Counted from the stretch's first letter, positions 28,610 to 50,191 are shown. The stretch is 64,000 nucleotides of DNA from Patescibacteria group bacterium (GCA_041661745.1 JBAZTR010000003.1:11965-75964), one strand, 5' to 3'. A program made the numbers and translations. The notes: generated by a model from the letters alone, not told the origin.

Positions 28610-31345
28610 TTACTGAGCTAGTTCGGCCAATTCAACGCGAGTCTGCATAATACTCATATCCACTTCGTCACTTGTCGACATGTTGTCGCCAACAGTGAAA
28701 CGGGCAAAAGTGGTTGGTTCGAGATCAATTATGTAGTCTGCCCAATCTGCGCCATACAATGCCTCGGCTGTAGCCTCGCTAGGTACCCAGCGCAGGACAT
28801 TGCCGTCGTCAATGGCATAGGTCTTGGCATCAGATTGAATCTTGACCAGGACTGAGCCAGGTTGTGGCATAATCGGCGAGGCCAGCGGCAATGTTGGCAA
28901 GGTGGCATCGGTCACCCAAATAACAATGTCGAAAGAATCAGCGTAAGAGAAGAAGGAATTAGCGTCCCAGAAAGGATGACGACCTTCGGAATCAATGAAA
29001 TAAACGGTGTTGAAGTAATTGGAGCGAATAAACCAACCTTCACGAACTTCGGAAATTTCTTGGGCTAATCCAGTTACCGGTGACAAACCATTTTCACCGG
29101 AGTTGTTGGCAACCATACGCCCTTCAGAATCGAGTTCGGTATTATCAAGAATTTCTACAACCGCTTCGTCTGTAGTGGACGTGATGTCAAAAGCTTCGGT
29201 TACATCCGTGTCCAAATTCGCCTTACCGGTATCATAAGCTGTGATTTTCACTAATACATCGCTGGCATCAATGTTTGGAACCGACCAGCTATAAGTACCC
29301 AAACTCTTGCTAACGTTATAAGCAATTTGTGTATAGGTCGAACCGTTATCGATTGAATAACCGAGTTCAACTGTATCAATACCGGATCCAGCTGTGGACC
29401 AAGTGATCGTTGCGGTGTCTCCACCGGTTTGATCGGCTAAATCAGTAATGGTAACAGCCGGCTCATTACCGGCTGTCGCGCCGCCACTGCTACCGCTACC
29501 TGAGGAAGAACTAATAAATGTGTTGGTCAAGGCAACAGCTGTATCGGAAGCAATATTATAGGAAGTGGTTCCTCCTTCTTCAACCACGAACGAAGTGATA
29601 TCTGTTACACCGGCATAAGAAGAGGTGATATTCGCTAAAATAATCGTTCCAGTTGTTCCGGTGGTACCAGCAGTAACATCACAAGTTAAAACCTGGGCAG
29701 CATCATCACATTCAATGGTTGCGCCGCCGTCATCGTCAAAAGTTCCAGTGGCTGTTTCGGAAAGTCCTGTTATATCTATAAAAGGCGGGAAGGTGATAAC
29801 AACTTCATCGCCTACATTTAGAGTAAACGGAACAGTCAAAGTAATTGTTGTGGTTCCAACCCGACTTGGGGTTGTGTTATTTAAGAGAACCACTGTAGCG
29901 GCGGCATCGGCGGCCGTGACGTTTGTCAAACCCGTTGTAACGTCATTAGCGATTATATCAGTATCGTTGCCTTCGTCTTGTACTTCAAGAACTGTAATAT
30001 CATCTGTTCCAGCATAATAGAATTTAATACCTGACAAAAGAATATCTTCGGTTCCATCGCCATTTCCCATAACTCCGCCAGCTGTACAGGTTACTTTCTG
30101 TGAACTTGGGACACACGCGGTGAAATCACTAGGTCCTTCAAGAAAGGTCGTTGAGAGATAAGCTGCACCAGATACGTTCACGTAATCCGGAAAGGTGATT
30201 TCAACAGTATCAGCGGCGTCCAAATCGGTCGGCAGGGTCAAGGTAATAGTAGTTGTAACAGCTGTATTACTAACAACTGATGCTGAAAAAACAACAGAGG
30301 CGTTGGCAACTCCGGCAGTCACAGTTGTTACAGCGACTGTCGTATCAAGTGCAATATCATTTGCCGGGGTGTTTTCATCATAAATCTGAAAATCTGTGAT
30401 ATCGGTGGTTCCGGCATATCTCGCGGTAATGCCGGTCATAATAATCGACCCAGAACCAGCACTAACCGTGTCACTTGCACTACAAGTTAAAGTCTGAGTA
30501 GAAGCGGAACAGGAAAAAGTCCCGCCCCCGCCAAAATCTTCTGAGCCAACGGCAACATCGGCAATATTTATATAAGCAGGAATGGTCATTACAACCTTGT
30601 CGTCGGTATCGACAGAAACCGGTAAAGTGAATGACAAGGTCACATCACCAGCAGCACCCACAACAGGATTAGCCAAAACTATTTCAGCGTTGGCCGCAGC
30701 GGCAGCCGTAGCTATTGTTGGAGGTGTGCCAATGGTCGTAAGGTTGTCCGCACCAGTGTCATCAGTCTGAATCACAACGTTGGCAGCGGCTCGAACATAA
30801 TTAGAGTCTTTAACAGCCGCCCAAATTGTGAGAACATCGCCAGAGTCCATTTGTTCAGTAGCCTGAATGGTTATCAAACCTGTATTTACCGCAGCGCTTG
30901 CGGTAAAAGCAATGGCTGTGTTGTCTGTCGCTCCACCATTATCAAGATAAGTTGGCATCCATTCACCAACAGTATCTATGTTAGTTAACGCAGCCTCTTC
31001 GTTTGTATCCCACGTGTTGGCAGGAAACAAATTAGTATTTATTTGAACCGTTATGTTGTTTTCTGCGGCGACAATACCACCAGCACCAATTGTAATAGCA
31101 ATTTTTAGGTAACTTTGTGTCCCTACGGTTACAGTACCAGCAGCACTGGGACCAACATAGGTGGTGTTATAAGCGTCCGTGCTTCCTGTACCTACATCAA
31201 TAGTAGCTGTACCTGCACCGGCCACGGCCTTAACCGTCCTGGTAGGCATTACCTGCCAAGTTCCGATTGTAAGGGCTAGAAGCAAAAAAGCCGCCATCGA
31301 CCATGGCATCACTTTAAAGAGCCCTTTTCCTAAGATTTGCGCCAT
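28610..31345 (-). CDS. Large Thr/Ala/Gly-rich secreted protein with three internal ~100-aa repeats and a conserved C-terminal domain
   Basis: Signal/TM anchor MPWSMAAFLLLALTIG. Repeats centred on ..LTCSASDTVSAG.., ..VTCTAGGVMGNG.., ..LTCDVTAGTTGTTG.. The C-terminal about 110 aa are homologous to 37880-39580 and 49397-50191. Confidence 0.7.
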   Translation of the reverse strand: MAQILGKGLFKVMPWSMAAFLLLALTIGTWQVMPTRTVKAVAGAGTATIDVGTGSTDAYNTTYVGPSAAGTVTVGTQSYLKIAITIGAGGIVAAENNITVQINTNLFPANTWDTNEEAALTNIDTVGEWMPTYLDNGGATDNTAIAFTASAAVNTGLITIQATEQMDSGDVLTIWAAVKDSNYVRAAANVVIQTDDTGADNLTTIGTPPTIATAAAAANAEIVLANPVVGAAGDVTLSFTLPVSVDTDDKVVMTIPAYINIADVAVGSEDFGGGGTFSCSASTQTLTCSASDTVSAGSGSIIMTGITARYAGTTDITDFQIYDENTPANDIALDTTVAVTTVTAGVANASVVFSASVVSNTAVTTTITLTLPTDLDAADTVEITFPDYVNVSGAAYLSTTFLEGPSDFTACVPSSQKVTCTAGGVMGNGDGTEDILLSGIKFYYAGTDDITVLEVQDEGNDTDIIANDVTTGLTNVTAADAAATVVLLNNTTPSRVGTTTITLTVPFTLNVGDEVVITFPPFIDITGLSETATGTFDDDGGATIECDDAAQVLTCDVTAGTTGTTGTIILANITSSYAGVTDITSFVVEEGGTTSYNIASDTAVALTNTFISSSSGSGSSGGATAGNEPAVTITDLADQTGGDTATITWSTAGSGIDTVELGYSIDNGSTYTQIAYNVSKSLGTYSWSVPNIDASDVLVKITAYDTGKANLDTDVTEAFDITSTTDEAVVEILDNTELDSEGRMVANNSGENGLSPVTGLAQEISEVREGWFIRSNYFNTVYFIDSEGRHPFWDANSFFSYADSFDIVIWVTDATLPTLPLASPIMPQPGSVLVKIQSDAKTYAIDDGNVLRWVPSEATAEALYGADWADYIIDLEPTTFARFTVGDNMSTSDEVDMSIMQTRVELAELAQ

Positions 31346-31471
31346 ATTGGAAAATTATTTTTCTTTTTAAAAGAAAATTATTATTAAATGTTTTAAGTTG
31401 ATATTATTTTATCACAAAAAATCAATGAAATCAAGAGGAAAAACGGCCCTGTGGACAAGTTGTGCGTTTTT

Positions 31472-33928
31472 TTACTCACTTTGCACTTCCCCACCCTCAA
31501 CTGTAGTCGCGGTTTCTTCACCTTCTTCAACCGGTGTCGGGACTTGGGTAGTCAATTGGCCGGACTTTAATTTACTAAGTCTGGTTTGCACCGCCTGATT
31601 GCCCGGATTTAGTTCAGCCACCTTAGCAACCTGATTGATTGCCTCGTTCAATTTTCCGTCAATTTCATACATCGAAGCCAAATACCAGCGAGCATTTGAA
31701 TAGTTCGGAGACAACTCAAGTATTCGCTCTAATTCCTTTTGTGCTGAATCATAATCAGTCAGACGAATATAAAGCATGGACAATTGGAAACCGAGACCAA
31801 CATCCAACGGTTTATAATCGCGAAGCGCGGCCAAACGGGCGGCGGCATCTTTTAACTTGCCTTGGCGTTCCAAAACTGCCGCCAAATAATAGTGGGCCGG
31901 GGCGTAATCCGCCTTCAAAACAATCGATTGGTTAAGGTATTGTTCGGCCGAAACTAAGGAATTTTTTTCCGATTCAACGGCCGAGGCCGCCAATTCCTTA
32001 TTAGTGGAGCTCTTTAAATTACGGGCCCGATCGGATACGGCCAAATAAAGACGAGCTAAACCGGTTGAATAAGCCGGATTATTATCTTCCAATTCCATGG
32101 CTTTTAAGTAAGAAGCGGCGGCAACATCCTCAGCGCCGGTTACCACCGGCATAACATCACGATATACATTACCCCGTTGAACCCAGTTACTGACATTGTT
32201 TGGCGACAAATACGCGGCACGGTCAGCCGAGGTCATGGCCGCCTTAACCAACTGTTGGATAATCGAGGCTTCGTTTGCGTCAATTTTCGATTCATCGGCT
32301 GTGGCTGTGGTTATAGTGTCTTTAGTTCGCAAAAGAAAGGCTTGGCTTAAGTTTCTGTAATAAATATCAGAAAGGCTGTTTAAAGAGACAGCTTCGCCTA
32401 GTTTGGCGGTAATTTGTTCAATGGGCGCGCCGGCGTTATCCAGCTCAACGGCCTTAGCAAAAGCAACTTCCGAAGCATAGCGTTGCCCGGTCACAAACAA
32501 AGTTACGATAACTCCGACCGACACCAAAACAAAAGCAAAGGAAAAGACCAAACCGAGTTTTGGAGAACTGACAAAGCCGGTCTCTTTTATTTTAAGAGCA
32601 ACTTGGCTGGCCAACAATCCGGTCAAAGCCCAAAACAAAAAGGTTAAGGACATGTTAGAGGAATAAAGCAGGTTGGCCAAAATCAAGGTGGCCCAAGAAG
32701 CAAAAAGAACGTAGGTTATTTTCCATTCATCGTGTTCGCGCTCCTTAAGCAAGCGTCCCAAAGCCTTAAGTCCGATCACCAAAACTAACAGTAACCAAAA
32801 GCCTAAACCAACTACACCAAAAGTGGCGAGGGTGGTTAGACCTTGAGATTTGGCACGATCGAAATTGGTGTCCCAAAATATTGTCTGGTTAACCTCGTCC
32901 GGTTTGTACTTGGTATAGTCAAAAGAGAAAGTTCCGGGGCCTGAACCAAAAATTAAAGGCATTGGGCCGTCGGACAAAACTTGTTTGGTTATATCCCAAC
33001 TTGTGCCATAACTTGGACCAATTACCAAAGGAAGATTTAACTTGATTGGACTGGTTAAGAAAAGCAAAAAGATGCTGATCAGGATAATTATCAGAGGAAC
33101 GATAAAACGGTTGGATTTACCGAATTCGTTTTGTTGTAAAAAAACAAAAACCATCACCAAAAGCATACCGAAAATCGCTAGAACCCAAAGAACCCAAAAA
33201 TCAATCGCCACAAGAAGAATTGTAGTAGCCACTGATAAAAAGATAACTAAACCACGCGTCACCGCCCCTTTAATGCCAACTGGAAAAAAATCGTTTCGTT
33301 CTTTTTTACCAACCAACCACATTCCCATGCTAAAAACCATCATAATTGTTAGGAAGACGGTAAAGGAGGTGATTGTCCCAACAGTGTTGGCCCCATGTGC
33401 TGTTAAGAACGGGATAAAACCTAGGCCAAAAATATTCAGCAAGGTAATCAAGGCACTAAGCGAGGTGGCCGATAAAATAGCAAAGAAAATATTTCTTTGA
33501 ACCGTGGTTTCGCCAGCCTTGTTCATCAAAACGTAAAAAATAACCACGGAAACAGCTAGGGTTAAAAAGCTGGTGTATTCCTGCGAGGACTGCCCCACCC
33601 ATGATTGATATCCGGCTAAAGAAAAAATTGAGGAAACCAACCCGCCGAGCAAAAGCAGGGCCGGCAATAAGTTTAACCAACCAGCCCGAAAGGCCAGTTT
33701 TTTTTCCATGACCATTGAACCGAGCCAAGCCAACAGGGCGACAAAAGCCAGAATAACCATCAAGGTTTGTTTGCTGACCTCAAAGGCCTCGTTAGTAAAC
33801 GGAAGAAAGAAGATCGGCAAAAAAAAGAAAAGGGCGTAGAGTGACCAACGAATTACCGTCTCGTAGAGACCGGCGTTCGCCAAAGAAACTCTCTTTCTTT
33901 TTCCAACCGAGGTTGAAGCGATATCCAT
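31472..33928 (-). CDS. Polytopic membrane protein: O-antigen-ligase-like domain fused to C-terminal TPR repeats
   Basis: At least 12 TM segments in the N-terminal 480 aa; C-terminal TPR-like repeats. Confidence 0.65.
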   Translation of the reverse strand: MDIASTSVGKRKRVSLANAGLYETVIRWSLYALFFFLPIFFLPFTNEAFEVSKQTLMVILAFVALLAWLGSMVMEKKLAFRAGWLNLLPALLLLGGLVSSIFSLAGYQSWVGQSSQEYTSFLTLAVSVVIFYVLMNKAGETTVQRNIFFAILSATSLSALITLLNIFGLGFIPFLTAHGANTVGTITSFTVFLTIMMVFSMGMWLVGKKERNDFFPVGIKGAVTRGLVIFLSVATTILLVAIDFWVLWVLAIFGMLLVMVFVFLQQNEFGKSNRFIVPLIIILISIFLLFLTSPIKLNLPLVIGPSYGTSWDITKQVLSDGPMPLIFGSGPGTFSFDYTKYKPDEVNQTIFWDTNFDRAKSQGLTTLATFGVVGLGFWLLLVLVIGLKALGRLLKEREHDEWKITYVLFASWATLILANLLYSSNMSLTFLFWALTGLLASQVALKIKETGFVSSPKLGLVFSFAFVLVSVGVIVTLFVTGQRYASEVAFAKAVELDNAGAPIEQITAKLGEAVSLNSLSDIYYRNLSQAFLLRTKDTITTATADESKIDANEASIIQQLVKAAMTSADRAAYLSPNNVSNWVQRGNVYRDVMPVVTGAEDVAAASYLKAMELEDNNPAYSTGLARLYLAVSDRARNLKSSTNKELAASAVESEKNSLVSAEQYLNQSIVLKADYAPAHYYLAAVLERQGKLKDAAARLAALRDYKPLDVGLGFQLSMLYIRLTDYDSAQKELERILELSPNYSNARWYLASMYEIDGKLNEAINQVAKVAELNPGNQAVQTRLSKLKSGQLTTQVPTPVEEGEETATTVEGGEVQSE

Positions 33929-34072
33929 ATCTAAAGATTAAAAAAATTATTTTTTAATTTAAAAAGAATTAACGTTGTCTATTCTAACGCAAAAAATACC
34001 AAAAGGCAAAAAAACATCCACACACAAAACACCAAGTTTTAAAAAATTACGTAAAACAAAAATCCGACCTGG

Positions 34073-34149
34073 TGGTGGGCGCAAGAGGACTCGAACCTCT
34101 GACCTTCACAATGTCAATGTGACGCTCTAACCAGCTGAGCTATGCGCCC
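34073..34149 (-). tRNA. tRNA-Val (anticodon GAC), encoded CCA
   Basis: GGGCGCA acceptor, anticodon arm TCACA-TTGACAT-TGTGA, T-loop TTCGAGT. Confidence 0.9.
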
Positions 34150-34181
34150 GGCATCAGGCCGGATTTTTTTGGTTTTACACT

Positions 34182-34970
34182 TTACAACGAATCTTGATTT
34201 TGGAAAAGGGCCACGGCATACTCCCAGTACTTCCCTTGCTCACCGGCACACTCGGCCGCTTCGGCGGCATTCTCGGCCTGATCGTGGAAAGAAAGGGGGA
34301 AATCGCGGAGTACCCATCTTACCTTACCGGAATAATCTTTCAAGACCTGTTGCATGGTCGCGTCAAAACCCTGGCAATAAGGACATTGAAAATCAGTGTA
34401 GGTAACAATTGTAATATCGCCTGAACCGGCAATATGATCGCTTTCGGTTACCGCGGCCAAGGTGCCGGAGACATCGGCTGTAGTAGCCGGTGTACCAGAA
34501 ACCGTGTTGCCCAAAGTTTTATCCAACAAGGCTTTCATGGAGGCGTAAGGAACCGCGCCGCCGGTAATCTGTTTAACTGAGCCGTCTTTATTAATTAAAA
34601 ACGAAGACGGTGTTCCTCGGACACCAGCGGCCGAGGCACTAGCCTGATCTGTTTTAATAATCGCCAATTTACTATTAGACGAAAGACAGGCATTGAAGGA
34701 ATCCAAATTAAGTCCGACTTTGGTGGCCAAATCTTTAAAAAGCTGATCCGGAGTAGTGGCCACAACATCAGTATTGGTATTATCAGCCGTTCCACCGGTG
34801 GCAACGACATTGTCGGTGTTGTTGGAACTACCGCCCTGCAAAACATAAACACCCAGACTGATAAAACCAGCCGTGCCAAGAATCAATAAAGAAGCGACGC
34901 AACCGATAATAAACGACTGCCTTGGTGAAAAAGCGTCGAAAAAAGATTTCTTTTGGAAAGGATTGTCCAT
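34182..34970 (-). CDS. DsbA-like thiol:disulfide oxidoreductase, membrane-anchored
   Basis: N-terminal TM; thioredoxin fold with FQCPYCQGFD (CxxC). Confidence 0.75.
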   Translation of the reverse strand: MDNPFQKKSFFDAFSPRQSFIIGCVASLLILGTAGFISLGVYVLQGGSSNNTDNVVATGGTADNTNTDVVATTPDQLFKDLATKVGLNLDSFNACLSSNSKLAIIKTDQASASAAGVRGTPSSFLINKDGSVKQITGGAVPYASMKALLDKTLGNTVSGTPATTADVSGTLAAVTESDHIAGSGDITIVTYTDFQCPYCQGFDATMQQVLKDYSGKVRWVLRDFPLSFHDQAENAAEAAECAGEQGKYWEYAVALFQNQDSL

Positions 34971-34982
34971 ATTTTTATTTTT

Positions 34983-35396
34983 TTAATTTTCGTCAGAATT
35001 CAACCCGTCTAATTCTAGCTTTTCTGTGAAGGTTGTCAACCATGTCCGATCCTTAAAAGAGGAGAGCTTAAGAAGAACAAAACCAATAAGAATTAACGAA
35101 GCAAAACCAACAACGGCCGAAATAATAAGTTGGACCCCACCGCAGGAAAGTAAAATAACAAGGCTATCTTGGTCCCGAGGAAAAGCAAAACAATCGCTAG
35201 CCGTTCGTTCCATCCAAGTCGTGCTAACCCACGCCGCGGCTAAAGCACAAAGGGCCGCGGCCAAAGAAAACAAACAGCTGAACCGAACCTTTCGCAAACG
35301 AATAAGACGAAGCAGGGCCACGCAAGCGAAAAAAATGCCACCAATCATCCAATAAAGAAAAAACCAGATCACGGCTAAAGTGGCAAAAAAAATCAT
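34983..35396 (-). CDS. Hypothetical membrane protein
   Basis: 137 aa, 3 TM segments. Confidence 0.4.
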   Translation of the reverse strand: MIFFATLAVIWFFLYWMIGGIFFACVALLRLIRLRKVRFSCLFSLAAALCALAAAWVSTTWMERTASDCFAFPRDQDSLVILLSCGGVQLIISAVVGFASLILIGFVLLKLSSFKDRTWLTTFTEKLELDGLNSDEN

Positions 35397-35575: not shown

Positions 35576-35579
35576 AATT

Positions 35580-35656
35580 TGGTGGGCCCACCTGGACTCG
35601 AACCAGGAACCTCCGAGGTATAAGCTCGATGCTCTAACCAGTTGAGCTATAGGCCC
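35580..35656 (-). tRNA. tRNA-Ile with anticodon UAU (reads AUA), encoded CCA
   Basis: GGGCCTA acceptor with U6-G67 wobble pair, anticodon stem TCGAG/CTCGG, loop C-U-UAU-A-C, T-loop TTCGAGT. Confidence 0.8.
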
Positions 35657-37879: not shown

Positions 37880-39580
37880 TTAGATGCTTTGCACATCGCT
37901 TTCCTCATCGATTGTAGATCCGAATTGCAGTTGGGTAGTATCAGCCATATTGAATTCGACGATACCCTTGTTCCAAGTCTGTCCGAAAATATTGTAAGCA
38001 ATAAGTTGAGTGGTAATCCAGTGGAGTTTTCCATCGGAGCCAACCATATAAACCTTAGGGTCATTGGCCATCTTAAGGCGAGTGCCCGGGGCATAGGTGG
38101 CGTCACCGCCGTCCTTCAAAGCATTGAAGGAGGTGGAAGAAATTGTCTCCACATCATTCCAACTGTCAAACCAGCTGAAATAAGTTTTTTCGTTTTGGAT
38201 CCAGTAGGACGTATCATCAAGCACAAGATAAACACGGGAAGAACCAGAAACTTTAACCGCACGGACATCAGATGTACCGGTCATGGCATGAAGCGACAAA
38301 GTGGCTTCATAAACATGATTATCAGAACCATACCAATAAACGTGCATGTCATCGGAAATCACGGCGTTTGAACCGAAACCGAGATTAATTTTACGATCAG
38401 AAGCAGTATCTAAATACCAGATATTACCAGTCGTATCTTCACCAACCACGATGCTACCCAAAGCATCAGTTACAGCAAAAGGATAGGTGGTGGTGGTTTT
38501 TGTGGCAAAATCATACATCTTGCCAACTGTGCCCGAGGAATAATAAAGGGCGGTGTCAGTCAAGGTAAAAGTCTGCGGGTAACCAATGGTGCCAAGGTCG
38601 AGGTCAACGCCAGCGCCACTTACATGCAAACCATCTTCAGGGTCAAGCCAAGCCATACGGCCGTTCACAACCTGTAAGGATTGCTCGTAACTATGATACC
38701 AACTTAATGAATCACCTTGAGCCACTGTTGTTTTACCGTCATAGATAAAACGTTGATATCTGTCAAAAAATTCTATAGTACCATCGGTGCGAAAGTGGGC
38801 ACCAACAATGTCTTCGCTTTCCTCGGTCCAGGTATTAGGCACGGCTTCGGCTGTCTTGGGATCGGCCATGGTGTCGTAAACCCACAATTGTTTAAAACCA
38901 GATTCAAAAACCATTTTTGACAAAATCTTACCATCTTTAACGTCTTGAATTTCATCACGCTGTTGAGTCCATTGTTTCGCAATAACCTTAACCGAATCAG
39001 ATAACTGATCGTATTGATAAATTACTGCGTTGGTAAAACCTTTATGATCGTTCCAATTCAAAGAAGCGTTGATAAAATATTCTCCATTACCTTCCATAAC
39101 ATCGGCGTCTTGGATACCGTCCATGAAGAATTTTTCCAACTCAATGTTTTTTTCGCCAGTAGCTAAATCAAGACTGACAACTTCCCAATAATTGTTGCTG
39201 TCAGCATCAGCGGAATTGATATAAACCAATTCCTCACCATTGTTATAAAAACGTTGTTCGTCCACGGTTTCGTGCGGCACATTGCCGACGAACATGGCCA
39301 TACCGTCGCGAAGCACATACAAATCGTAGCGTTCGCAACCAGTATCAGAAGCACAGGTTCCAGCCGCTTTGGCCACAACCACATTGTCACCTAAAGATAA
39401 CGGACCGTTGAAATCATCAGTGCCGAAATCAAGACGTTCGACTTTGTAGTCGTCGTAGGTCCAAGCCGCAGTGGCTTGAATATAGCTCCAGGAACCGGAA
39501 TCGGCTTGCACAGCCGACGGCATGATCGGTTGAGCGACCATGGCCACGGTAGCCAGAGAGATAAGGGTCTTTTTAAACAT
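37880..39580 (-). CDS. Secreted protein (signal peptide) with the conserved C-terminal ~110-aa domain shared with 28610-31345 and 49397-50191
   Basis: MFKKTLISLATVAMVAQPIMPSAVQA signal. C-terminus ..NDPKVYMVGSDGKLHWITTQLIAYNIFGQTWN.. Confidence 0.6.
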   Translation of the reverse strand: MFKKTLISLATVAMVAQPIMPSAVQADSGSWSYIQATAAWTYDDYKVERLDFGTDDFNGPLSLGDNVVVAKAAGTCASDTGCERYDLYVLRDGMAMFVGNVPHETVDEQRFYNNGEELVYINSADADSNNYWEVVSLDLATGEKNIELEKFFMDGIQDADVMEGNGEYFINASLNWNDHKGFTNAVIYQYDQLSDSVKVIAKQWTQQRDEIQDVKDGKILSKMVFESGFKQLWVYDTMADPKTAEAVPNTWTEESEDIVGAHFRTDGTIEFFDRYQRFIYDGKTTVAQGDSLSWYHSYEQSLQVVNGRMAWLDPEDGLHVSGAGVDLDLGTIGYPQTFTLTDTALYYSSGTVGKMYDFATKTTTTYPFAVTDALGSIVVGEDTTGNIWYLDTASDRKINLGFGSNAVISDDMHVYWYGSDNHVYEATLSLHAMTGTSDVRAVKVSGSSRVYLVLDDTSYWIQNEKTYFSWFDSWNDVETISSTSFNALKDGGDATYAPGTRLKMANDPKVYMVGSDGKLHWITTQLIAYNIFGQTWNKGIVEFNMADTTQLQFGSTIDEESDVQSI

Positions 39581-40570: not shown

Positions 40571-40642
40571 ACTCCCTTCCGCCAACCACTGGGAAGTGAC
40601 TGAAAGAAGGGGGCCGTCGAATTCGCTTTCGACGGGAAGATG
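40571..40642. repeat. Repeat element R_X (CTCCCTTCCGCCAACCACT...GAAGGGGG GCCGTCGAATTCGCTTTCGACGG GAAGATGG), 3' of island gene A
   Basis: The 5' half recurs at 41065-41112 and the hairpin half at 41879-41911. Confidence 0.7.
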
Positions 40643-40661
40643 GTTAGCGACCTTACGTTGA

Positions 40662-41039
40662 CTACAATTCCGCGGTCTCGATCGAGACGCGGATGAGCCG
40701 AACGTAACGGTCAAAGGCGAAGACCGCCCGGCCGGCCTCGTCGGTGCCGGCGACGATCAACCGCCCGGTCGCGTCGCGCTTGAACTCGGCGCGGAGCAGC
40801 GGGAAGGTGATTTCGCTGCGGGCCCCGAGGAGGCGCGCGAGGATCGGGAGAGGGGCGACCACTTCGGCCGCCACAACCTCGCCGACCTCGGCCGCCAACC
40901 GAGCCACCGTTCCGATGGGGTCGTCGCCAAAGGCGACGTCCATCGTGACGATTTCGAGGTCAATGCCGAACTTGGCACGGAGCCAGTCTTCGGCCGCGGG
41001 GAGGACGGGGTGACGGGTGATTCGGAGGAATTTGGACAT
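40662..41039 (-). CDS. Hypothetical protein A (125 aa) of the high-GC cassette array
   Basis: AGGAG 7 nt before the ATG. GC3-rich codons. 3' end encoded by a 14-bp palindrome GTCTCGATCGAGAC. Confidence 0.5.
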   Translation of the reverse strand: MSKFLRITRHPVLPAAEDWLRAKFGIDLEIVTMDVAFGDDPIGTVARLAAEVGEVVAAEVVAPLPILARLLGARSEITFPLLRAEFKRDATGRLIVAGTDEAGRAVFAFDRYVRLIRVSIETAEL

Positions 41040-41064
41040 GAGGAACTCCTAGGTTTGTTTTTCT

Positions 41065-41112
41065 CCCTTCCGCCAACCACTCGAGAGTGATTAGAAAAAG
41101 GGAGCTGTCGTG
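41065..41112. repeat. Repeat element R_Y (CTCCCTTCCGCCAACCACTCGAGAGTGATTAGAAAAAGGGAGCTGTCG)
   Basis: About 80% identical to the 5' half of R_X. Confidence 0.7.
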
Positions 41113-41234
41113 GAACAAGTACGATCCACAACAGGACGATTGTTTGGCCTTCCGCCCCCGCGGGCTAGGCTATACCTCCATTAAAGGTTAGGGGTTAAAG
41201 ATGGGCCGACCCGGCCGCCTTTCGGAGTTACCTC

Positions 41235-41723
41235 CTACTTGGCAGCCGATGCCGTTTTGGCCGGAGCCGAAGCCGCCCGCTTGGCCGCGGCCGAGCTGAT
41301 GCCAGACGCCTCGAGGGCGGCCGCCATCTTCTCGGCATTGGCCTCCGCCTCGATGCGCGCGGTGAGGCGGGCGGCGTGAGCCACCGCAACCTCGAGCCGC
41401 GCGACGCTGCGTCGGTGGGCCTCGAGAACCTCGACCAGCCGATTGGCCGCCAGTCGCTTGGCCGCAAGGGCCTCGCGACGAGCAGCTTCGGCGGCCCGCC
41501 CTTCCGCGATCGGCGCCTGGCGGGCAGCCGACCTCTGGAAGGCGGCGTCGGCCGCGACAAAGGCGGCGTCGGCATTCCGGCTTTCGACCTCGCGGTCGAA
41601 GAGGCGTGCCTCGACAGCCTTGAGGTCGGCCTGAGCCGGTCTCACCGCGAGCTTGATCTGGCGGTGGAGCTCGTCGGCCGGGGTAACGACGCGAGGGGCA
41701 CGGACAATACGAGCATGGAACAT
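41235..41723 (-). CDS. Ala/Arg-rich coiled-coil protein B (162 aa) of the high-GC cassette array
   Basis: AGGAGA 6 nt before ATG 41723. MFHARIVRAPRVV... The longer ORF-track versions (41846 start, or the Arg/Gly-rich alternate frame) are rejected. Confidence 0.5.
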   Translation of the reverse strand: MFHARIVRAPRVVTPADELHRQIKLAVRPAQADLKAVEARLFDREVESRNADAAFVAADAAFQRSAARQAPIAEGRAAEAARREALAAKRLAANRLVEVLEAHRRSVARLEVAVAHAARLTARIEAEANAEKMAAALEASGISSAAAKRAASAPAKTASAAK

Positions 41724-41878
41724 GACTGTCTCCTGACTGGGGGTAGAAGGAAAAGACCAGGAATAAATGATTGCTTGCCGTGGATCTCGGCCGGAACCAA
41801 GGAGGTGACCGAACGACCTGGCAAAGATCACATAGCAAGCAACCAAGAAATGATTTTATAAAAAATCAGCTCTTGGTT

Positions 41879-41911
41879 GCCGTCGAGTTCGTTCTCGACG
41901 GGAAGGATTGG
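41879..41911. repeat. Repeat element R_Z (GCCGTCGAGTTCGTTCTCGACGGGAAGGATTGG), hairpin half of R_X, immediately 3' of gene C
   Basis: CCGTCGAG..CTCGACGG inverted repeat. Confidence 0.7.
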
Positions 41912-42436: not shown

Positions 42437-42475
42437 GACACACCTCCGGAAGTTTTTCGTTTATCCCCTGTTTTA

Positions 42476-43357: not shown

Positions 43358-44104
43358 CTAGCGATCTTTTTCCGCGCCGTCCCAGGCCGCGTCAAACAAA
43401 ACCTTAGCGGTTTCGGCAAAAATTTTATTTTCCAAAACTACGGCAATTATTTTTCCAACAAAAGAAACAAAGGCAACACGGTTCCCATAGATCCAAATGT
43501 CACCATGAAATTCACCTAATTTATTTTTATCTAAAAAACGATAAGTAACCTTTTCACGTCGATGGGTCAATTCCCCGATGTGCAGAAGGTTAATTTTTAT
43601 TTTACCGGGATCAAGAACCATCCGAACATCTTTCAAAAGTTCAGAGTCTAAAAGATTATAGACATCCTCCATGTTAGATAATTCGCGTAAAGAATCTGGG
43701 GCAACTGAAGCCACGTCGGTAAAAATAGCGCTTAGAGCTTCTTGGCCCTCAAAAAAACGCACGGCTGGACGTTCGCCGCCACCCAACATTTTCACCTCTG
43801 GTAAAACCTTGTTTAAAGTTTCCAACTTTTCCTGCATTTCATGAACATGTTCTTTAAAATGCGATAAAGCGCGTTCCGGCTCTTCGGCAGCAAAAACCCG
43901 CTTCTTGCCACGTTCGTGAGAAGACATTAAACCGCGGTTTTGTAAGGCCTCAATATTGGTATAAGTGGCCGTGCGAGAGAGGTTGGCTTTTTTGGCAATT
44001 TCTTGTACCGGGGCTGGGCCAAGGTTCAAGCTGGCAAAATAAACCTTAGTTTCGGTTTCCGATAAACCGAGCGAGGTAAATAATCGAAAGATATCAGTTG
44101 ACAT
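43358..44104 (-). CDS. TrmB-family transcriptional regulator (N-terminal wHTH plus C-terminal domain)
   Basis: Start of protein ..KVYFASLNLGPAPVQEIAKKANLSRTATYTNIEALQNRGLM.. is a TrmB-type HTH. Confidence 0.7.
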   Translation of the reverse strand: MSTDIFRLFTSLGLSETETKVYFASLNLGPAPVQEIAKKANLSRTATYTNIEALQNRGLMSSHERGKKRVFAAEEPERALSHFKEHVHEMQEKLETLNKVLPEVKMLGGGERPAVRFFEGQEALSAIFTDVASVAPDSLRELSNMEDVYNLLDSELLKDVRMVLDPGKIKINLLHIGELTHRREKVTYRFLDKNKLGEFHGDIWIYGNRVAFVSFVGKIIAVVLENKIFAETAKVLFDAAWDGAEKDR

Positions 44105-44180
44105 AACGGGGGTATTATATCAGAGAGGGTTAATGGTTAGAAGAGGGACTATTTTTTTGAACAGACGCTCGGGCGTTAAG

Positions 44181-44215
44181 GCATTAAAAAACAGAGCCAG
44201 CTGGCCCTGTTTTTT
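44181..44215. terminator. Hairpin CAGAGCCAGCTGGCCCTG flanked by A- and T-runs (ileS terminator on the minus strand)
   Basis: The minus strand reads ACAGGGCCAGCUGGCUCUGUUUUUU. Confidence 0.5.
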
Positions 44216-44222
44216 TATTTTA

Positions 44223-47111
44223 TTAAACCTTAATAAAACCAACGGTTATATCGCACTCGTTAAGACGAAAGGCCTCACAAATTTCCGGGCGTTCGCCAGT
44301 TGTACGGAGATTGTTGGCTAAAGTGCCAACACGAATCGTCTCCCCATATTCTTCAATCATTTTCTGAGCCTCGACTTCAGCACTTTCGAAATAAATTTCA
44401 ATGCGATCTTCGATGGTCAATTTATTATTCTTACGCATTTCGTTAATGCGACGAACCAGGTCGCGAGCCATGCCTTCACGAAGCAATTCTGGCGTAAGAT
44501 TAACATCGAGCTCAACGTTGTACTCGCCTTTTTCAACAATCACGGCTTTTACATTAACTTCGTCTTTAATGATTTCAATAAGTTCGGCATCCAACTCCCC
44601 TTCTGGCAACCATACAGTGGCTGAAGCGAGTGGTTGGCGCACCGGTCGGCCGGTTTCAGCCCGGGCTTCCAAAATTTTGGAAACGACTGAACGAGCACGA
44701 GCCATGCGCTCCAAAAGTTTTTCATCAATTAATGCGACGTCAGCCGTCGGCCAATCATCAAGATGAACCGAAGCCTTGCCCCCTTGAAGTCGCAAGTAAA
44801 TAGCGTCAGACAAAAACGGAGTAAACGGGGCCATGAGTTTGGTAATGCCAAGCAAACATTCACGCAAGGTGAAAATAGCCGCGGCTTTGTCAGCTTCGTC
44901 CGATCCTTTAAAGCGATCGCGACTGCGGCGGACAAACCAGGTTGAAAGATCATTGATAAAATCAGCAATGGCCCGTACCGGTTCGGTCACTTTATAATTT
45001 TCCAACTGTTCGGTTGAATCTTTTATTAATTGATTCAGGCGAGATAGAACCCAACGATCCAAAACATTTTCCTTCTCTTTTTCTCCCTTTATTTCCCTTT
45101 CCTTCCCTTCATAGAGTTCGTAAAAAGTCATGATGTTCCAAAGGATCATGAAAACTTTCTTAATCATTTCATCGAGCGATTTCAAATCAAACCGTTTGGA
45201 ATCACCAGGCTGATTAATGGAATACATGTACCAGCGCACGGAATCAGCTCCGTATTTATTTATGGTCTCGACCGGATCAACAACGTTGCCGATGGACTTA
45301 GACATTTTCTTTCCTTGAGCATCAAGAACGTGTCCCAAACAAATGACATTTTTGTAAGGACGTTCTTTGCCAAGCAAGGTGGCCACAGCGAGCAGAGTGT
45401 AAAACCAACCGCGGGTTTGATCGATAGCCTCGGAAATATAATCAGCCGGATAGGCTGTCGCTTGCCCCTCGGAGCCCGGCGAAGTGGGGTCGATCTTTTC
45501 TTTATTCTCGAAAGGATAATGCCATTGAGCGAAAGGCATACAACCGGAATCAAACCATACGTCGCAGACTTCCGGGATGCGTTTCATTTGTTCGCCACAG
45601 CTGTCGCATTTAATCAAAACATCATCAACAAAAGGACGATGCGGATCAAACGGCTCGGCCATAGGTGTGACTGCCTTGGCTTTCAATTCTTCAAAACTTC
45701 CAATGCAAGTTTTTTGGCCGCAGGAACAGGTCCAAATCGGCAGTGGTGTACCCCAGTAACGCTCACGGGAAAAGGCCCAGTCCTTAACTTCACGCAGCCA
45801 TTCACCAAAACGACCTTCCTTAATATAATCAGGCTCCCAATGAATGTTTTCGTTTCCTTCAATCAGTTTATCGCGCAAAGAACTCATTTTGATATACCAA
45901 GAAAACTTGGCCAGATAGAGGAGCGGGGCTTTGCAACGCCAACAGAAAGGATAGGTATGACGATAAGTTTCTTCTTTATATAACAAACCGCGATCCAATA
46001 AATCTTTTTTAATATCTTCGTCGGCCTTTTTCATGAACTTACCAAAGCCCGGTGACTTTTCCGAACTAACCATGCCGGTTTGATCAACAGTAAAAATAAC
46101 TGGCAATTTTTCCGCGTCACCTAAACGTGAGTCATCCTCACCATAAGCCGGAGCAATATGAACAATTCCCGAACCATCGGTCGTGGAAACGAAATCAGCG
46201 GTGTAAACTTTGTAAGCTTTTTCTTTTTCTCGTCCGGGGGTGTCGTAATAGGTTTCGTAGAGCGGAACATATTTCATTCCAACCAATTCTGATCCGTTTT
46301 TCTCCCACACGGTTTCAAAAGATTCACTAACTTTTCCAAGTAGTCCGCTGGCTAAAATAAATTTTTCACCATTAGCCAACTTAATCTGTGAATATGAAAT
46401 ATTTTCACCAATAGCCAAAGCTACGTTACTCGGCAAGGTCCACGGAGTGGTGGTCCAAACTAAAAAGTAGCTATTCTCTTCCCCTTCAATTTTAAACTTA
46501 ATGTAAACCGACTGGTCATCGACCTCTTTGTATCCTTGAGCCAACTCGTGTGAAGACAAAGTTGTTACACAACGTGGACAATGTGGCACGACTTTATAAT
46601 CTTGATACAAAAGATCCTTGTCCCAAATCTGTTTAATGATCCACCACAACGACTCGACGTATTCGGAATGATAAGTGACGTACGGTTTGTCGAGGTCAAG
46701 CCAGAAAGCGATGCGCTTGGTAATTTTTTGCCAATCCTCAAGATACTTCCAAACACTTTCGCGACATTTTTTGTTGAATGGTTCAATGCCAAAATTTTCA
46801 ATGTCTTTCTTACCGGAAAAACCAAGTTGCTTTTCAACTTCAATTTCCACCGGCAAACCATGGGTGTCCCAGCCAGCCTTGCGATCGACTAAATACCCTT
46901 GCATGGTGCGGAAACGCAAAAGGCAATCTTTAAAAGCGCGCGACTCGACGTGGTGAATGCCGGGTTTACCATTGGCAGTAGGAGGCCCTTCAAAAAAAAC
47001 AAAACGGCCTTTGGGGGCAGCCTTGGCCAGGGTTTGTTCAAAAATCTTTTCTTTCTCCCAGTTTTCCAGGAGTTGTTCCTCGATTTGAGGAAAATTTGGT
47101 CTATCGGACAT
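44223..47111 (-). CDS. ileS: Isoleucine--tRNA ligase
   Basis: PPTANGKPGIHHV (HIGH region), KMSKSIGN, editing domain. 962 aa. Confidence 0.95.
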   Translation of the reverse strand: MSDRPNFPQIEEQLLENWEKEKIFEQTLAKAAPKGRFVFFEGPPTANGKPGIHHVESRAFKDCLLRFRTMQGYLVDRKAGWDTHGLPVEIEVEKQLGFSGKKDIENFGIEPFNKKCRESVWKYLEDWQKITKRIAFWLDLDKPYVTYHSEYVESLWWIIKQIWDKDLLYQDYKVVPHCPRCVTTLSSHELAQGYKEVDDQSVYIKFKIEGEENSYFLVWTTTPWTLPSNVALAIGENISYSQIKLANGEKFILASGLLGKVSESFETVWEKNGSELVGMKYVPLYETYYDTPGREKEKAYKVYTADFVSTTDGSGIVHIAPAYGEDDSRLGDAEKLPVIFTVDQTGMVSSEKSPGFGKFMKKADEDIKKDLLDRGLLYKEETYRHTYPFCWRCKAPLLYLAKFSWYIKMSSLRDKLIEGNENIHWEPDYIKEGRFGEWLREVKDWAFSRERYWGTPLPIWTCSCGQKTCIGSFEELKAKAVTPMAEPFDPHRPFVDDVLIKCDSCGEQMKRIPEVCDVWFDSGCMPFAQWHYPFENKEKIDPTSPGSEGQATAYPADYISEAIDQTRGWFYTLLAVATLLGKERPYKNVICLGHVLDAQGKKMSKSIGNVVDPVETINKYGADSVRWYMYSINQPGDSKRFDLKSLDEMIKKVFMILWNIMTFYELYEGKEREIKGEKEKENVLDRWVLSRLNQLIKDSTEQLENYKVTEPVRAIADFINDLSTWFVRRSRDRFKGSDEADKAAAIFTLRECLLGITKLMAPFTPFLSDAIYLRLQGGKASVHLDDWPTADVALIDEKLLERMARARSVVSKILEARAETGRPVRQPLASATVWLPEGELDAELIEIIKDEVNVKAVIVEKGEYNVELDVNLTPELLREGMARDLVRRINEMRKNNKLTIEDRIEIYFESAEVEAQKMIEEYGETIRVGTLANNLRTTGERPEICEAFRLNECDITVGFIKV

Positions 47112-47218
47112 ATTGTGTTAGGGAAAGGGAGTTAAAGGGAAAGAAAGGGAGGGAACGGGAGGGAAAGAAGATAAAATTTCCTTCTCTTTAATTCCCTTTT
47201 CATCTCTTTCCTTCTCTT
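47112..47218. repeat. Polypurine (GGGAAAGGGAGTTAAAGGGAAAGAAAGGGAGGGAACGGGAGGGAAAGAAG) / polypyrimidine (TTCCTTCTCTTTAATTCCCTTTTCATCTCTTTCCTTCTCTTC) mirror repeat in the ileS leader
   Basis: Seen directly in the sequence. Potential long imperfect hairpin or H-DNA. No T-box motifs seen. Confidence 0.6.
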
Positions 47219-47385
47219 CTAAAAACTGGGCAAATAATAACATTTATAGGCAAAAATGACAAATTTGTGAGATAAAAAACCGCGTGGCCGTGAAGCCATG
47301 CGGGAGGGGAGGGTGGATGCGAGAGTGTCCAAGGTCCAAGGAACCAAGAGCCATGCCAAGGGCAGAGGGCCAAAGAATCCCAGGG

Positions 47386-47958
47386 CTAGGAAACCTTGCG
47401 GAGAGCGAGGAAGCGGCAATGGGCATCCCAGTCGTCAGCGCCGTGGTCGATGTACAGGCGGCGCTCGCGGTCACCGCGATAGAGACAAGGGAAGAACAGG
47501 CGGCCGTGGCGGCGCCAGGCCTGGCCCAGAGCCACGATGGGGTAATTCCTCTGTTCCTCGGGGCACTTGGCTCCGTAGGCGAGGAGCTCAGCCGCCGAGG
47601 CGGGGATGACCCCCAACTGTTCGATCTCGTGGAGAGCTTCGTTGGTCGAGGCTCGACCGAGGTAGACGAGTACGGGCTCGTACTTGATCACGCCGGTGGA
47701 CTTGTTCGGGAAGTGCTCGGCCGTGACATCCATATCGCGACAGTTGTAGTGGCCGGCCGCGACCATCGCCTCGAAGGCGAGGTCATAGTTGACTTCGAGA
47801 ACGGAGTCCTCGAACCGCCCTTCGATGATGGCTTGGAGGGCGAGGCTGAGCTGCGCCGGGCTGAACGGGTAGCCGCCCCTCTGCCGGAGCTGGCGCTTGA
47901 TCTCAGTGAGCTGGCCGTCCAGATCGTAATACTGTTCGCCGGTGACGATGGGCGCCAT
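47386..47958 (-). CDS. Hypothetical protein D (190 aa) in high-GC island 4
   Basis: GGGAGA 6 nt before ATG 47958 (MAPIVTGEQYYDLDGQL...). GC3-rich. The antisense 260-aa ORF is rejected. Confidence 0.45.
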   Translation of the reverse strand: MAPIVTGEQYYDLDGQLTEIKRQLRQRGGYPFSPAQLSLALQAIIEGRFEDSVLEVNYDLAFEAMVAAGHYNCRDMDVTAEHFPNKSTGVIKYEPVLVYLGRASTNEALHEIEQLGVIPASAAELLAYGAKCPEEQRNYPIVALGQAWRRHGRLFFPCLYRGDRERRLYIDHGADDWDAHCRFLALRKVS

Positions 47959-48263
47959 GACGAATCTCCCTTTGTTGTGGCTTATGCCCGCCAGCGCCGT
48001 ATGCGCCGACAGACCTTCGCCGTCGTAGACCAGTTGTTGTCCCGATCTTCTTTCAAATTTCCTTAGAAAAACCTGAAAGAAAACCGCGAATTTAACGACT
48101 GACAATAACACAAAGTGACTGATTTGTCAATTCAAAACCCCTTCATCCTCCCTTGCCCTCCATAGCTCGCCTTGAGCGACGGAGGGTTCGTCCCCTTCAA
48201 CCTCTTCGTCCCCCAGCGCCCGCCATAGCCCAGCGAAGGCGGGTTTGATACAATACAAACTGT

Positions 48264-48710
48264 ATGACTCAAAAAATCTACCTTGGTGCCGACCATGCCG
48301 GTTGGGAACGCAAGGAAAAAGTTAAAGAATGGCTGGCTGCCGATGGTTTGGCTGTGGAGGATTTAAGCAACCCCGAACTTAACCAAGCTGATGATTATCC
48401 GGACGTGGCTTTCAGGGTGTCCGAACGAGTGGTGGGCGACGAAGAGGCTTTGGGAATCCTAATTTGCGGCAGTGGTATTGGAATGTGTATGGCCGCCAAC
48501 AAGGTGAAAGGAATTCGTGCGGCCACGGTATATAATGTATGGGCAGCCGAGGCGAGTCGAAAGGACAACAACGCTAATGTTCTTTGTTTGCCAGGGCGAG
48601 TCCTTGATGACGAGGAGGAAAAAGAAATTATTAAGGTCTGGCTTGTGACAAATTTCTCCGGCGAGGAGCGGCACAAGAGAAGAATAAAAAAAATTAACAG
48701 TTATGTCTGA
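48264..48710 (+). CDS. rpiB: Ribose-5-phosphate isomerase B
   Basis: LGADHAGWERKEKV...ILICGSGIGMCMAANK. Confidence 0.85.
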   Translation: MTQKIYLGADHAGWERKEKVKEWLAADGLAVEDLSNPELNQADDYPDVAFRVSERVVGDEEALGILICGSGIGMCMAANKVKGIRAATVYNVWAAEASRKDNNANVLCLPGRVLDDEEEKEIIKVWLVTNFSGEERHKRRIKKINSYV

Positions 48711-49356
48711 GATAATTCCGGCTATTCTTGCCAACTCGAAACAGGAATTTGAAGAAAAATTACGTATCGCCGAAAAATTTGCTCCGGTAATCCAAATCGA
48801 TATTCTTGATGGCACGCTCTTCCCTTTTTCCAATTGGCATGACGCGGAGGCGGTGGCGGCCATGGAAACCCCGGCATCTTTTGAACTGCATTTAATGGTT
48901 AATAATCCTTTACCGATAATTGCCGAGTGGGTGGCGAAGGTTCCAAATGTTAAACGAGCCATCATCCACGCCGAAATCGAACGACCGCTTGGAAAAATTT
49001 TGGAAGAAATCCACGTGACTCACTTAATCGAGGCTGGTGTGGCCATAAACCCGGAAACGCCACTTGAAGAAATTCACGCTGTTTTACCTGACCTTGATGC
49101 TTTAATGATTATGTCAGTTCACCCCGGACAGGCCGGACAAAAATTTGAAGGTGACTATATTCTAGAAAAAATCAAAAATGCCAAAAGCCGCGCTCCTGAG
49201 CTTAAAATCGAGGTTGATGGTGGGGTTACAATCGAGCTTATCCCCAGTCTAAAAAAAGCCGGAGCAACACGCTTTGCTGTAAATTCCGTGCTTTTTAAAG
49301 CGGAAAACAAGGAATTGGCTTGGAAAAACTTAAATGAAGCCCTTCAAACCATTTAA
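48703..49356 (+). CDS. rpe: Ribulose-phosphate 3-epimerase
   Basis: IQIDILDGTLFP...MIMSVHPGQAGQKFEG. 8-nt overlap with rpiB. Confidence 0.8.
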   Translation: MSEIIPAILANSKQEFEEKLRIAEKFAPVIQIDILDGTLFPFSNWHDAEAVAAMETPASFELHLMVNNPLPIIAEWVAKVPNVKRAIIHAEIERPLGKILEEIHVTHLIEAGVAINPETPLEEIHAVLPDLDALMIMSVHPGQAGQKFEGDYILEKIKNAKSRAPELKIEVDGGVTIELIPSLKKAGATRFAVNSVLFKAENKELAWKNLNEALQTI

Positions 49357-49396
49357 AAAAAGTGTTATAATAAAATGGATAAAATTTTAAAAACTT

Positions 49397-50191
49397 ATGT
49401 TCAAAAAAATATTTTTCGCTCTCACTGCTTTTGCTTTAATCATTAGTAACATGGGACTAGCCCGACCAGTCGCGGCCGCCACGGCTTTGGCTGATCTTGA
49501 GGCCGGCGATTTAATTCGCGGACAATCGCTTTCCGCTGTTTACTACTTTGCCAAAGACGGTTTCCGTTATGTTTTCCCGAACGACAAAACTTATTTTACC
49601 TGGTACACCAATTTCGATAGCGTAAAATGGTTGTCCGACGCTGATCTTGGCAAACTACAAATCGGCGGCAATGTTACCTACAAGCCGGGAACCAAAATGA
49701 TCAAAATCAACAGCGATCCAAAAACTTATGCGGTTGGTGAAGACGGCACCTTGCACTGGGTAACCACGGAAGCGGTGGCCATTTCCCTTTATGGTTCAAA
49801 CTGGAACACCAAAATTGATGACGTTCCGGATGGCTTCTTCTCTAACTACACCATGGGTTCTGATATTGCCGAGACCGGCGATTTCTCCCCGGCTAACGAA
49901 ACAGCCTCGGCCACCAACATTGATTCTGACAAGAGTCTGAAAGCTCCATACATCATCAATTTAACCGACAGCGGCTATTCTGACACTGATGTAACCATCG
50001 ATGCTGGCCGAGCGATCAAGTTCACGAACACCGGCAGCTCCAAGCACACGGCTACAGCCGAAGATTTGACCTGGGGTTCCGGAACCTTGAACGCTGGCGA
50101 TTCCTTCATTCGTTACTTTAACGATGCCGAAACGATTGAATACTTCTGCAGCTATCATTCCTCAGAGACCGGAACAATTACCGTTGAATAG
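49397..50191 (+). CDS. Secreted protein: signal peptide, conserved ~110-aa domain (shared with 28610-31345 and 37880-39580), C-terminal cupredoxin-like region
   Basis: ..NSDPKTYAVGEDGTLHWVTTEAVAISLYGSNWN.. C-terminus ..HTATAEDLTWG..YFCSYHSSETGTITV. Confidence 0.6.
   Translation: MFKKIFFALTAFALIISNMGLARPVAAATALADLEAGDLIRGQSLSAVYYFAKDGFRYVFPNDKTYFTWYTNFDSVKWLSDADLGKLQIGGNVTYKPGTKMIKINSDPKTYAVGEDGTLHWVTTEAVAISLYGSNWNTKIDDVPDGFFSNYTMGSDIAETGDFSPANETASATNIDSDKSLKAPYIINLTDSGYSDTDVTIDAGRAIKFTNTGSSKHTATAEDLTWGSGTLNAGDSFIRYFNDAETIEYFCSYHSSETGTITVE

Follow-up and report, generated by a model that had tools for sequence, protein, structure and literature searches.

The element that we describe here most closely matches, in structure, repeats R1-R4 of EccB, a core component of the type VII (ESX) secretion system (PF05108; PDB 3x3m, 4kk7, 5cyu, 7np7). 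Each of these repeats is a unit of about 50-55 amino acids (aa) with a four-stranded sheet and two helices, and the units are packed in pairs. A weaker likeness, in structure only, is to PlyCB and to the cell-wall-binding domains of LysIME-EF1 and Lys170, two lysins of enterococcal phages (PDB 4f87, 6ist, 7d55). The ligand of PlyCB is the polyrhamnose backbone of the group A carbohydrate (bioRxiv 10.1101/2021.03.19.436156), and the binding domain of LysIME-EF1 binds cell walls as a tetramer (PMC7098653). By function, the analogy is to the SLH, LysM, CWB2, SH3b and GW domains, which are terminal, often tandem, and common to unrelated secreted proteins, including S-layer-like giants. In a 64,000-nucleotide stretch of DNA from a Patescibacteria group bacterium, an uncultivated member of the Uhrbacteria (GCA_041661745.1 JBAZTR010000003.1:11965-75964; hereafter the window), we find three proteins that share a module of 125-135 aa, and this module is predicted to have the unit, the sheet with two helices, and the pairing of the EccB repeats.

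An initial annotation of the window, which was made from the sequence alone, had reported a segment of about 110 aa that is common to the C-termini of two open reading frames (ORFs; here A and B) and the N-terminal half of a third (C). All three ORFs exist with the positions and lengths that it gave, and we are nearly certain that the segments are copies of a real, homologous module. The proteins and their parts are (positions within the window):

28610..31345, minus strand: ORF A, 911 aa, threonine-rich (15%) and acidic (isoelectric point, pI, 4.05), with a hydrophobic N-terminal signal or anchor
28661..29050, minus strand: module copy in A (aa 766-895; BLASTP of A with C, 1e-23; hidden Markov model (HMM) score, 213 bits)
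28613..28660, minus strand: 16-aa tail after the module of A (aa 896-911), with the pattern M(K/Q)TR(A/V)ELAE
37880..39580, minus strand: ORF B, 566 aa, secreted, with signal peptide MFKKTLISLATVAMVAQPIMPSAVQA
37883..38275, minus strand: module copy at the extreme C-terminus of B (aa 436-566; BLASTP of B with C, 9e-24; HMM score, 198 bits)
49397..50191, plus strand: ORF C, 264 aa, with a signal peptide, the module, a short helical linker and a cupredoxin-like beta sandwich
49397..49477, plus strand: signal peptide of C (aa 1 to about 27), with core IFFALTAFALIISNM and then RPVAA/A, read from sequence and hydropathy
49487..49891, plus strand: module copy in C (aa 31-165), from BLASTP and HMM and from an AlphaFold2 model (described below)
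49502..49681, plus strand: repeat 1 of the module of C (aa 36-95), beta-beta-beta-alpha-beta-alpha
49682..49873, plus strand: repeat 2 of the module of C (aa 96-159), with the same order of elements and more diverged
49910..49939, plus strand: post-module motif ATNIDSDKSL in C (aa 172-181), within the two short helices between the module and the following domain
49946..50188, plus strand: cupredoxin-like C-terminal domain of C (aa 184-264), with candidate ligands H217, C251 and H254

When the full proteins were compared with BLASTP, B and C aligned over 138 aa (E = 9e-24, 36% identity), A and C over 139 aa (E = 1e-23, 32% identity), and A and B over 97 aa (E = 2e-5, 24% identity), and there was no other significant similarity among the three outside the module. 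A profile built from the three segments recovered exactly three copies from the six-frame translation of the window (filters off; 198-232 bits), and the next match had E = 0.86. So the recurrent module that the initial annotation proposed for these secreted proteins holds under formal scoring, although its length was put too low. Several of the landmarks that were listed for it (KTYF[ST]W, PGT, DPK, LHW and WN) are present in B and C, but the copy in A, which is the most divergent of the three, has NSFFSY, PGS, DAK, LRW and WA instead. The homology was thus seen correctly; the full length, the internal duplication of about 60 aa, and the membership in a very large family of Patescibacteria were missed.

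The modules are acidic (pI 4.0-4.5) and rich in aromatic residues (13-16%). In an alignment of 40 family members (A2), the invariant or nearly invariant residues are mostly aromatic residues, glycine, alanine and proline, along with R27, K73 and D112, and none of them looks catalytic. Hydrophobic, signal-like N-terminal segments are present in A, B and C, as judged from sequence and hydropathy, and B and C have alanine-rich sites that resemble cleavage sites (AVQA/DS in B, PVAA/A in C). By inspection of the sequences, LPXTG motifs and C-terminal membrane anchors are absent from all three proteins. We found no Pfam domain in A, and none in the N-terminal 430 aa of B, which has only a faint Kelch-like match (E = 0.85). 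Protein C is encoded, with identical sequence, on five metagenome contigs, and the window itself corresponds to a metagenome contig of 70.4 kb in ENA.

The module is not a named domain, as the initial annotation had supposed: Pfam-A (2025), NCBIfam 20.0 and PHROGs v4 have no entry for it. The modules of A, B and C had no match to Pfam-A or NCBIfam at E ≤ 1, and when the 40 module sequences were compared to Pfam one at a time, we saw only scattered noise at E ≤ 10. The modules from the window also had no match in PHROGs or in a collection of phage genomes, and a profile search of the chain sequences in PDB gave no true match, only summed matches to hairpins. The two outcomes that would have spoken against the module, a match to a well-characterised Pfam family and a collapse of the alignment under formal scoring, were thus not seen. 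Among known wall-anchoring families, the SLH, LysM, CW_binding_1/2, SH3b, GW, PG_binding and SPOR profiles had no match at E ≤ 1 to A, B or C, and at E ≤ 10 the 40 module sequences gave a single match, to Choline_bind_2 (E = 0.1). In the collection of papers that we searched, we found no description of the module and no paper that links Patescibacteria, or the candidate phyla radiation (CPR), with EccB or PlyCB; a broader look for CPR surface proteins and S-layers also turned up nothing specific.

Within the 40-sequence alignment, the two halves of the module align with each other from end to end (hhalign probability 91.7%, E = 7.7e-7, 59 columns), so the module is a tandem duplication of a unit of about 60 aa. 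AlphaFold2 modeled the module of C with high confidence from the same alignment (predicted local distance difference test, pLDDT, 95.8; predicted template modelling score, pTM, 0.84). Both halves of the model have the same order of elements (three strands, helix, strand, helix), and the two units are predicted to pack into a single compact body. A model of the whole mature C (pLDDT 96.8, pTM 0.89) contains the module, two short helices, and a beta sandwich.

The two short helices contain a conserved motif. Its family consensus is aTsIN.DKgL (carriers P0093-P0241), and it lies 10-11 residues past the end of the profile in 72 of 125 carriers (58%), as compared to 29 of 590 control windows (5%). 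In the full model of C, the helices have pLDDT of 94-98 and are well packed. The motif might cap the structure, or it might mark a site of processing or of cross-linking. It is missing where the module is C-terminal, as in A and B. The tail at the end of A, M(K/Q)TR(A/V)ELAE, recurs at the end of other A-type C-terminal modules (fragments P0011, P0044, P0048 and P0073).

We considered whether the similarity among the three proteins could be due to chance or composition, or could be a beta-propeller blade motif (PQQ- or NHL-like) that was picked out by eye. Searches of PDB sequences do give weak summed matches to designed propeller blades (hairpins of the form Y-A-x-n-p-dG-k-l-kW) and to antibody "SAVYYC" segments. 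These propeller matches are sums over hairpins with per-domain E above 100, so they are insignificant for any one domain. We rejected the propeller because the confident model is an alpha/beta fold with only two units and five to six helices, which is not a propeller. Given this model, the pairwise E-values down to 1e-23 and the thousands of full-length homologs, this explanation is already refuted.

When we compared the model to PDB with Foldseek, the top ten hits were all EccB1 or EccB5 (probability 0.63-0.94, E about 1e-2), and EccB3 was at rank 12. Among predicted viral structures (BFVD), the best hit was a 115-aa protein of Rhodococcus phage Weasels2, which matched the whole double repeat (E = 3.2e-6, TM-score 0.77). 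It was followed by proteins from Streptomyces phages and uncultured phages, and more weakly by phage proteins with CHAP, lysozyme or amidase domains. From these comparisons of models, the unit probably has an EccB-repeat/PlyCB-like fold.

There are also relatives by sequence. One carrier in the family, P0104, consists of 15 or more a/b units in alternation (P0093 is another long array), and the A2 profile matches P0104 at E = 8.8e-60. Its generic repeat aligns to half 1 of the module with hhalign probability 98% and E = 1.2e-13; the alignment to half 2 is in register but weak (E = 8.8e-4). The P0104 repeats in turn match a phage family of 118 positions (phrog_9616, E = 2.8e-86), a hypothetical protein of Streptomyces phages that adjoins the minor tail protein (E = 2e-3), CgeD-like GT2 proteins of Bacillus cereus (aa 234-349 of 429; tblastn E = 9e-7), and the C-terminus of a TagF-like glycerophosphotransferase of Priestia (tblastn E = 3e-9). 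Examples of these relatives, with positions in their own loci, are:

L081 3773-4177: Streptomyces phage Comrade gp46, a small protein that adjoins a minor tail protein
L082 1802-3091: CgeD-like GT2 relative of the spore-maturation type, from a Bacillus cereus plasmid
L083 2049-3680: TagF-like relative from Priestia

Pfam does not cover the repeat regions of the CgeD-like, TagF-like or phage relatives. Since related repeats are found in P0104 and in proteins from phages, Bacillus and Priestia, the unit belongs to a wider repeat superfamily that has no name. The Bacillus and Priestia relatives lie in loci for the synthesis of wall or spore glycopolymers, and judging from these sequences, this superfamily of roughly 58-aa repeats appears to be associated with glycopolymers. 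Its other members carry single units or long alternating arrays, while the module is a fixed, diverged double unit with the helical IN.DKGL extension. P0104 also matches PF05108 itself (39 bits, E = 4.2e-10), but the score is summed and no single stretch passes. This bridge to EccB is only a hint, because the summed score sits beside spurious summed matches (Vps23_core and FliC). Searches of PDB sequences with P0104 and with its repeat profile did not return EccB.

We ruled out that A, B and C are themselves EccB proteins, as their modules have no sequence match to PF05108, and there is no EccB architecture and no ESX locus. EccB has an N-terminal transmembrane helix and a central core that is flanked by the four repeats, and it is encoded in an ESX locus (type VII secretion system; EccC, EccD, MycP, WXG100). 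Unlike EccB, the carriers have signal peptides that look cleavable and unrelated passengers. The genes around A, B and C are housekeeping genes (for IleRS, RpiB, Rpe, and RluD-like, DsbA-like and GT2 proteins), and there are no ESX genes near them. Where EccB is part of a single dedicated machine, the module is a mobile unit that is found on many Sec-secreted proteins. The phage domains differ in other ways: they are single units that form rings of eight or four (PMC7098653), whereas the module is a covalent tandem pair, and they accompany wall hydrolases, whereas the passengers of the module are mostly not hydrolases. The SLH, LysM, CWB2, SH3b and GW domains have no sequence match to the module and differ from it in predicted fold. 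Overall, the module most resembles PlyCB-type modules in its likely use and the EccB repeats in its fold. The small fold and the logic of a shared terminal anchor are already known; what is new is a very large lineage-specific family, the fixed double unit, and the helical IN.DKGL extension.

To find other members of the family, we searched 1.84 billion representatives of clusters at 50% identity exhaustively with HMMER. This identified 6,850 representatives at E ≤ 1e-3, 4,771 at E ≤ 1e-10, and 2,744 at E ≤ 1e-30. Word-indexed protein searches with the 40-sequence profile or with the P0104 repeat profile added almost no members, and an earlier one returned mostly short fragments. The relatives that have names are almost all from Patescibacteria, mostly Ca. 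Uhrbacteria ("Patescibacteria group" or "Candidatus Uhrbacteria"). In GTDB, with one genome per species, there were at least 592 matching stretches, the best of which was 87% identical to C. Of the best 80 loci, about 60% are titled as Ca. Uhrbacteria, Patescibacteria or Parcubacteria, and about a third are titled "uncultured Gammaproteobacteria", which look like placeholder labels on third-party assemblies. The alignment with which related loci were sought reaches C-type relatives only, so the taxonomic range of the family as a whole rests on the names of close relatives.

Of the 149 best carriers, 125 have the module just after the signal peptide and 22 have it at the C-terminus; some carriers have two copies. 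Most of the 132 carriers that we scanned with Pfam have no known domain. Those domains that were found are all of extracellular types: fn3, Big_1/5/7, beta-helix, ice-binding-like, CarboxypepD_reg, cohesin and propeller domains, as well as DUF3048, C25 and trypsin peptidases, a chagasin-type inhibitor, cupredoxin and invasin-D3. About 45 of the 149 carriers belong to a single family of Patescibacteria proteins that are about 1,200 aa long, acidic (pI 4-5), poor in cysteine, and rich in threonine, serine, alanine and glycine, with the module behind the signal peptide. Both the composition and the layout recall S-layer proteins with N-terminal SLH domains, and these proteins are candidate S-layer or coat proteins. 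Members include P0112, P0138, P0132 and about 42 others; none is encoded in the window.

The initial annotation had noted a cupredoxin-like region after the module of C. In favor of this, the orthologs of C have precomputed matches to PF13473 or PF00127, and the C-terminal domain is a beta sandwich in the AlphaFold2 model. For C itself the support is weak, as its own scores are below the Pfam cut-offs (PF13473: E = 4.6e-4, 20.6 bits, cut-off 27; PF00127: E = 3.2e-3, 18.3 bits, cut-off 21.2). As compared to plastocyanin- or amicyanin-type cupredoxins, C has the sandwich and the His ... Cys-x2-His arrangement (H217 ... C251-x2-H254), and it lacks the axial methionine. We compared 107 ORFs with both the module and a cupredoxin domain from 80 related loci (L003-L080 are from Ca. 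Uhrbacteria genomes). The full motif, C-x2-H-x2-4-M, is present in 29 of these, and the cysteine is gone in 68. Just five of the 107 have C-x2-H without the methionine, among them C, which enters the count as both L001 and L002, and the relative nearest to it (L003). In 27 of the 80 loci, these genes are present as two or three tandem paralogs. From the sequences, a tandem set looks like one working blue-copper protein with degenerate copies.

We propose that the exported module attaches to an envelope glycopolymer without a covalent bond, and that this ligand is peptidoglycan or a polysaccharide that is associated with the wall. In a cell without an outer membrane, such binding would keep the passenger at the surface. 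In the window, the passengers would be the threonine-rich 911-aa protein, the 566-aa protein of unknown fold, and the cupredoxin-like domain. Having two units, or many as in the longer arrays elsewhere, would make the binding multivalent; PlyCB and the lysin domains achieve multivalency with ring-shaped homo-oligomers, and the module would do so with tandem units. We favor a putative anchor of this kind because the module is terminal on Sec-type proteins with very varied extracellular partners, and because its repeat probably shares a fold with the EccB repeats and with the PlyCB, LysIME-EF1 and Lys170 domains. Of the roles that the initial annotation suggested, a cell-wall anchor is thus favored; the binding, the ligand and the retention are inferred. 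We give this proposal close to an even chance of being correct. A broader version is that the module is the main non-covalent wall anchor of Patescibacteria, a counterpart of SLH in Firmicutes, which tethers the 1,200-aa coat proteins, enzymes, redox proteins and adhesins to a lineage-specific wall glycopolymer; this version is doubtful.

Several observations weigh against a glycopolymer anchor. The CgeD-like and TagF-like carriers of related repeats are probably intracellular, so the superfamily is not strictly an extracellular wall anchor. No cell-wall hydrolase domain was found by Pfam in any of the 132 carriers or in A, B or C; the single hydrolase fusion overall is a truncated relative with the end of an M23 peptidase (E = 4.9e-4, below the Pfam cut-off). 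The links to EccB, PlyCB and the lysin domains are at the level of fold only, as no PDB chain matches by sequence, and the phage binding domains score poorly in the comparison of folds. PF05108 does not match A, B or C at E ≤ 1, and it matches only one of the 40 family members (E = 0.12). Furthermore, the role of the EccB repeats in binding peptidoglycan is only a proposal (PMC4769845), and LysIME-EF1 binds via a positively charged (basic) patch, while the modules are acidic.

The same fold is compatible with binding to a protein. The module might be a docking or assembly module whose partner is an S-layer lattice, a pilus, an envelope complex or another copy of itself, much as the periplasmic domains of EccB build the ESX assembly and as PlyCB and LysIME-EF1 form rings. 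The best structural matches are to EccB within ESX assemblies (7np7, 7nps, 6sgy); the PlyCB and LysIME-EF1 domains are obligate oligomers (PMC7098653); the pTM of 0.89 for full-length C implies that the module packs rigidly against its neighboring domain; and about 45 of the 149 best carriers are in the S-layer-like family. Yet the oligomeric phage domains bind glycans all the same, and the related repeats in enzymes of glycopolymer synthesis point to recognition of carbohydrates. The partner domains are also extremely varied, and in the window, the genes for A, B and C are scattered, with no common or conserved partner gene adjoining them. We therefore consider docking to be unlikely. If the glycan belonged to another cell, then the module would be a lectin for host attachment and the carriers would be adhesins. 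Patescibacteria are largely episymbionts and the family is expanded in them, some carriers have stalk or adhesin domains (Ig-like, fn3, beta-helix, invasin-D3 or ice-binding-like), and PlyCB-type domains recognize species-specific wall polysaccharides (bioRxiv 10.1101/2021.03.19.436156). However, the position behind the signal peptide in 125 of the 149 carriers corresponds to the cell-proximal end of a fibrillar adhesin, not to its distal tip, and an adhesin with no other anchor would leave the cell that produces it. The module is also fused to a small cupredoxin-like domain, which has no obvious role at a host surface, and a host lectin seems quite improbable.

The strictly terminal position would also be expected of a sorting or export signal for a dedicated system, similar to the C-terminal domains of type IX secretion (T9SS) or to PEP-CTERM, and in this case IN.DKGL, which follows the module at a constant spacing in 58% of carriers, would be the processing site. 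But the module can be at either terminus, sometimes twice, or in long arrays (P0093 and P0104), which is unusual for a sorting signal; every carrier has a Sec-type signal peptide to begin with; the model places the motif in a well-packed helix and not in an exposed linker; and no co-occurring machinery is encoded near A, B or C. A sorting signal is very unlikely.

Patescibacteria (CPR) account for a large share of bacterial diversity. They are mostly uncultivated, they seem to live attached to other cells, and their proteomes are largely unannotated; how they retain proteins at their surface is essentially unknown. Because the module is at the termini of secreted proteins, it is a practical handle on the surface proteome, and one profile would flag candidate surface proteins, including probable S-layer proteins and cell-anchored cupredoxins. 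If the module does turn out to be the main wall anchor, then one HMM would suffice to delimit the proteins that thousands of uncultivated CPR genomes encode for display at the surface, and the module would point to the CPR S-layer protein and to its ligand in the wall. If the module binds a protein instead of a glycan, it would still define a docking system across Patescibacteria. From the link in fold, it seems that very distant lineages have reused a single small unit for association with the envelope, in the EccB repeats, in PlyCB-type phage domains and in the repeats of glycopolymer enzymes from Bacillus.

Two of the carrier genes lie next to genes for large membrane proteins. The threonine-rich protein A adjoins a polytopic membrane protein of 818 aa that has TPR repeats at its C-terminus (31472-33928, minus strand), and after C come a polytopic membrane protein of 523 aa without a Pfam match and then a GT2 glycosyltransferase (50258-52554, plus strand). 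Either pair could serve in glycosylation of the envelope or in polymer assembly.

The window has a GC content of about 44%, and we also noticed two short islands of very high GC content within it (40572-41905 and 47300-48111). The GC fraction reaches 0.58-0.74 at 40700-41600 and 0.63-0.65 at 47300-47900. The islands contain three ORFs without a Pfam match:

40662-41039, minus strand: 125 aa
41235-41846, minus strand: 203 aa
47386-48111, minus strand: 241 aa

A repeated element of 48-68 nucleotides (40572-40639, 41063-41110 and 41879-41905), which contains the palindrome GCCGTCGA...TCGACGG, bounds the first island. This could be foreign DNA of a cassette-like kind, or a repeated element with a regulatory or leader role.

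Finally, one feature bears on how this organism decodes its codons: ARAGORN identified a tRNA-Ile with the anticodon TAT (UAU) at 35580-35656 on the minus strand. For AUA, most bacteria instead use a CAU tRNA that is modified with lysidine.

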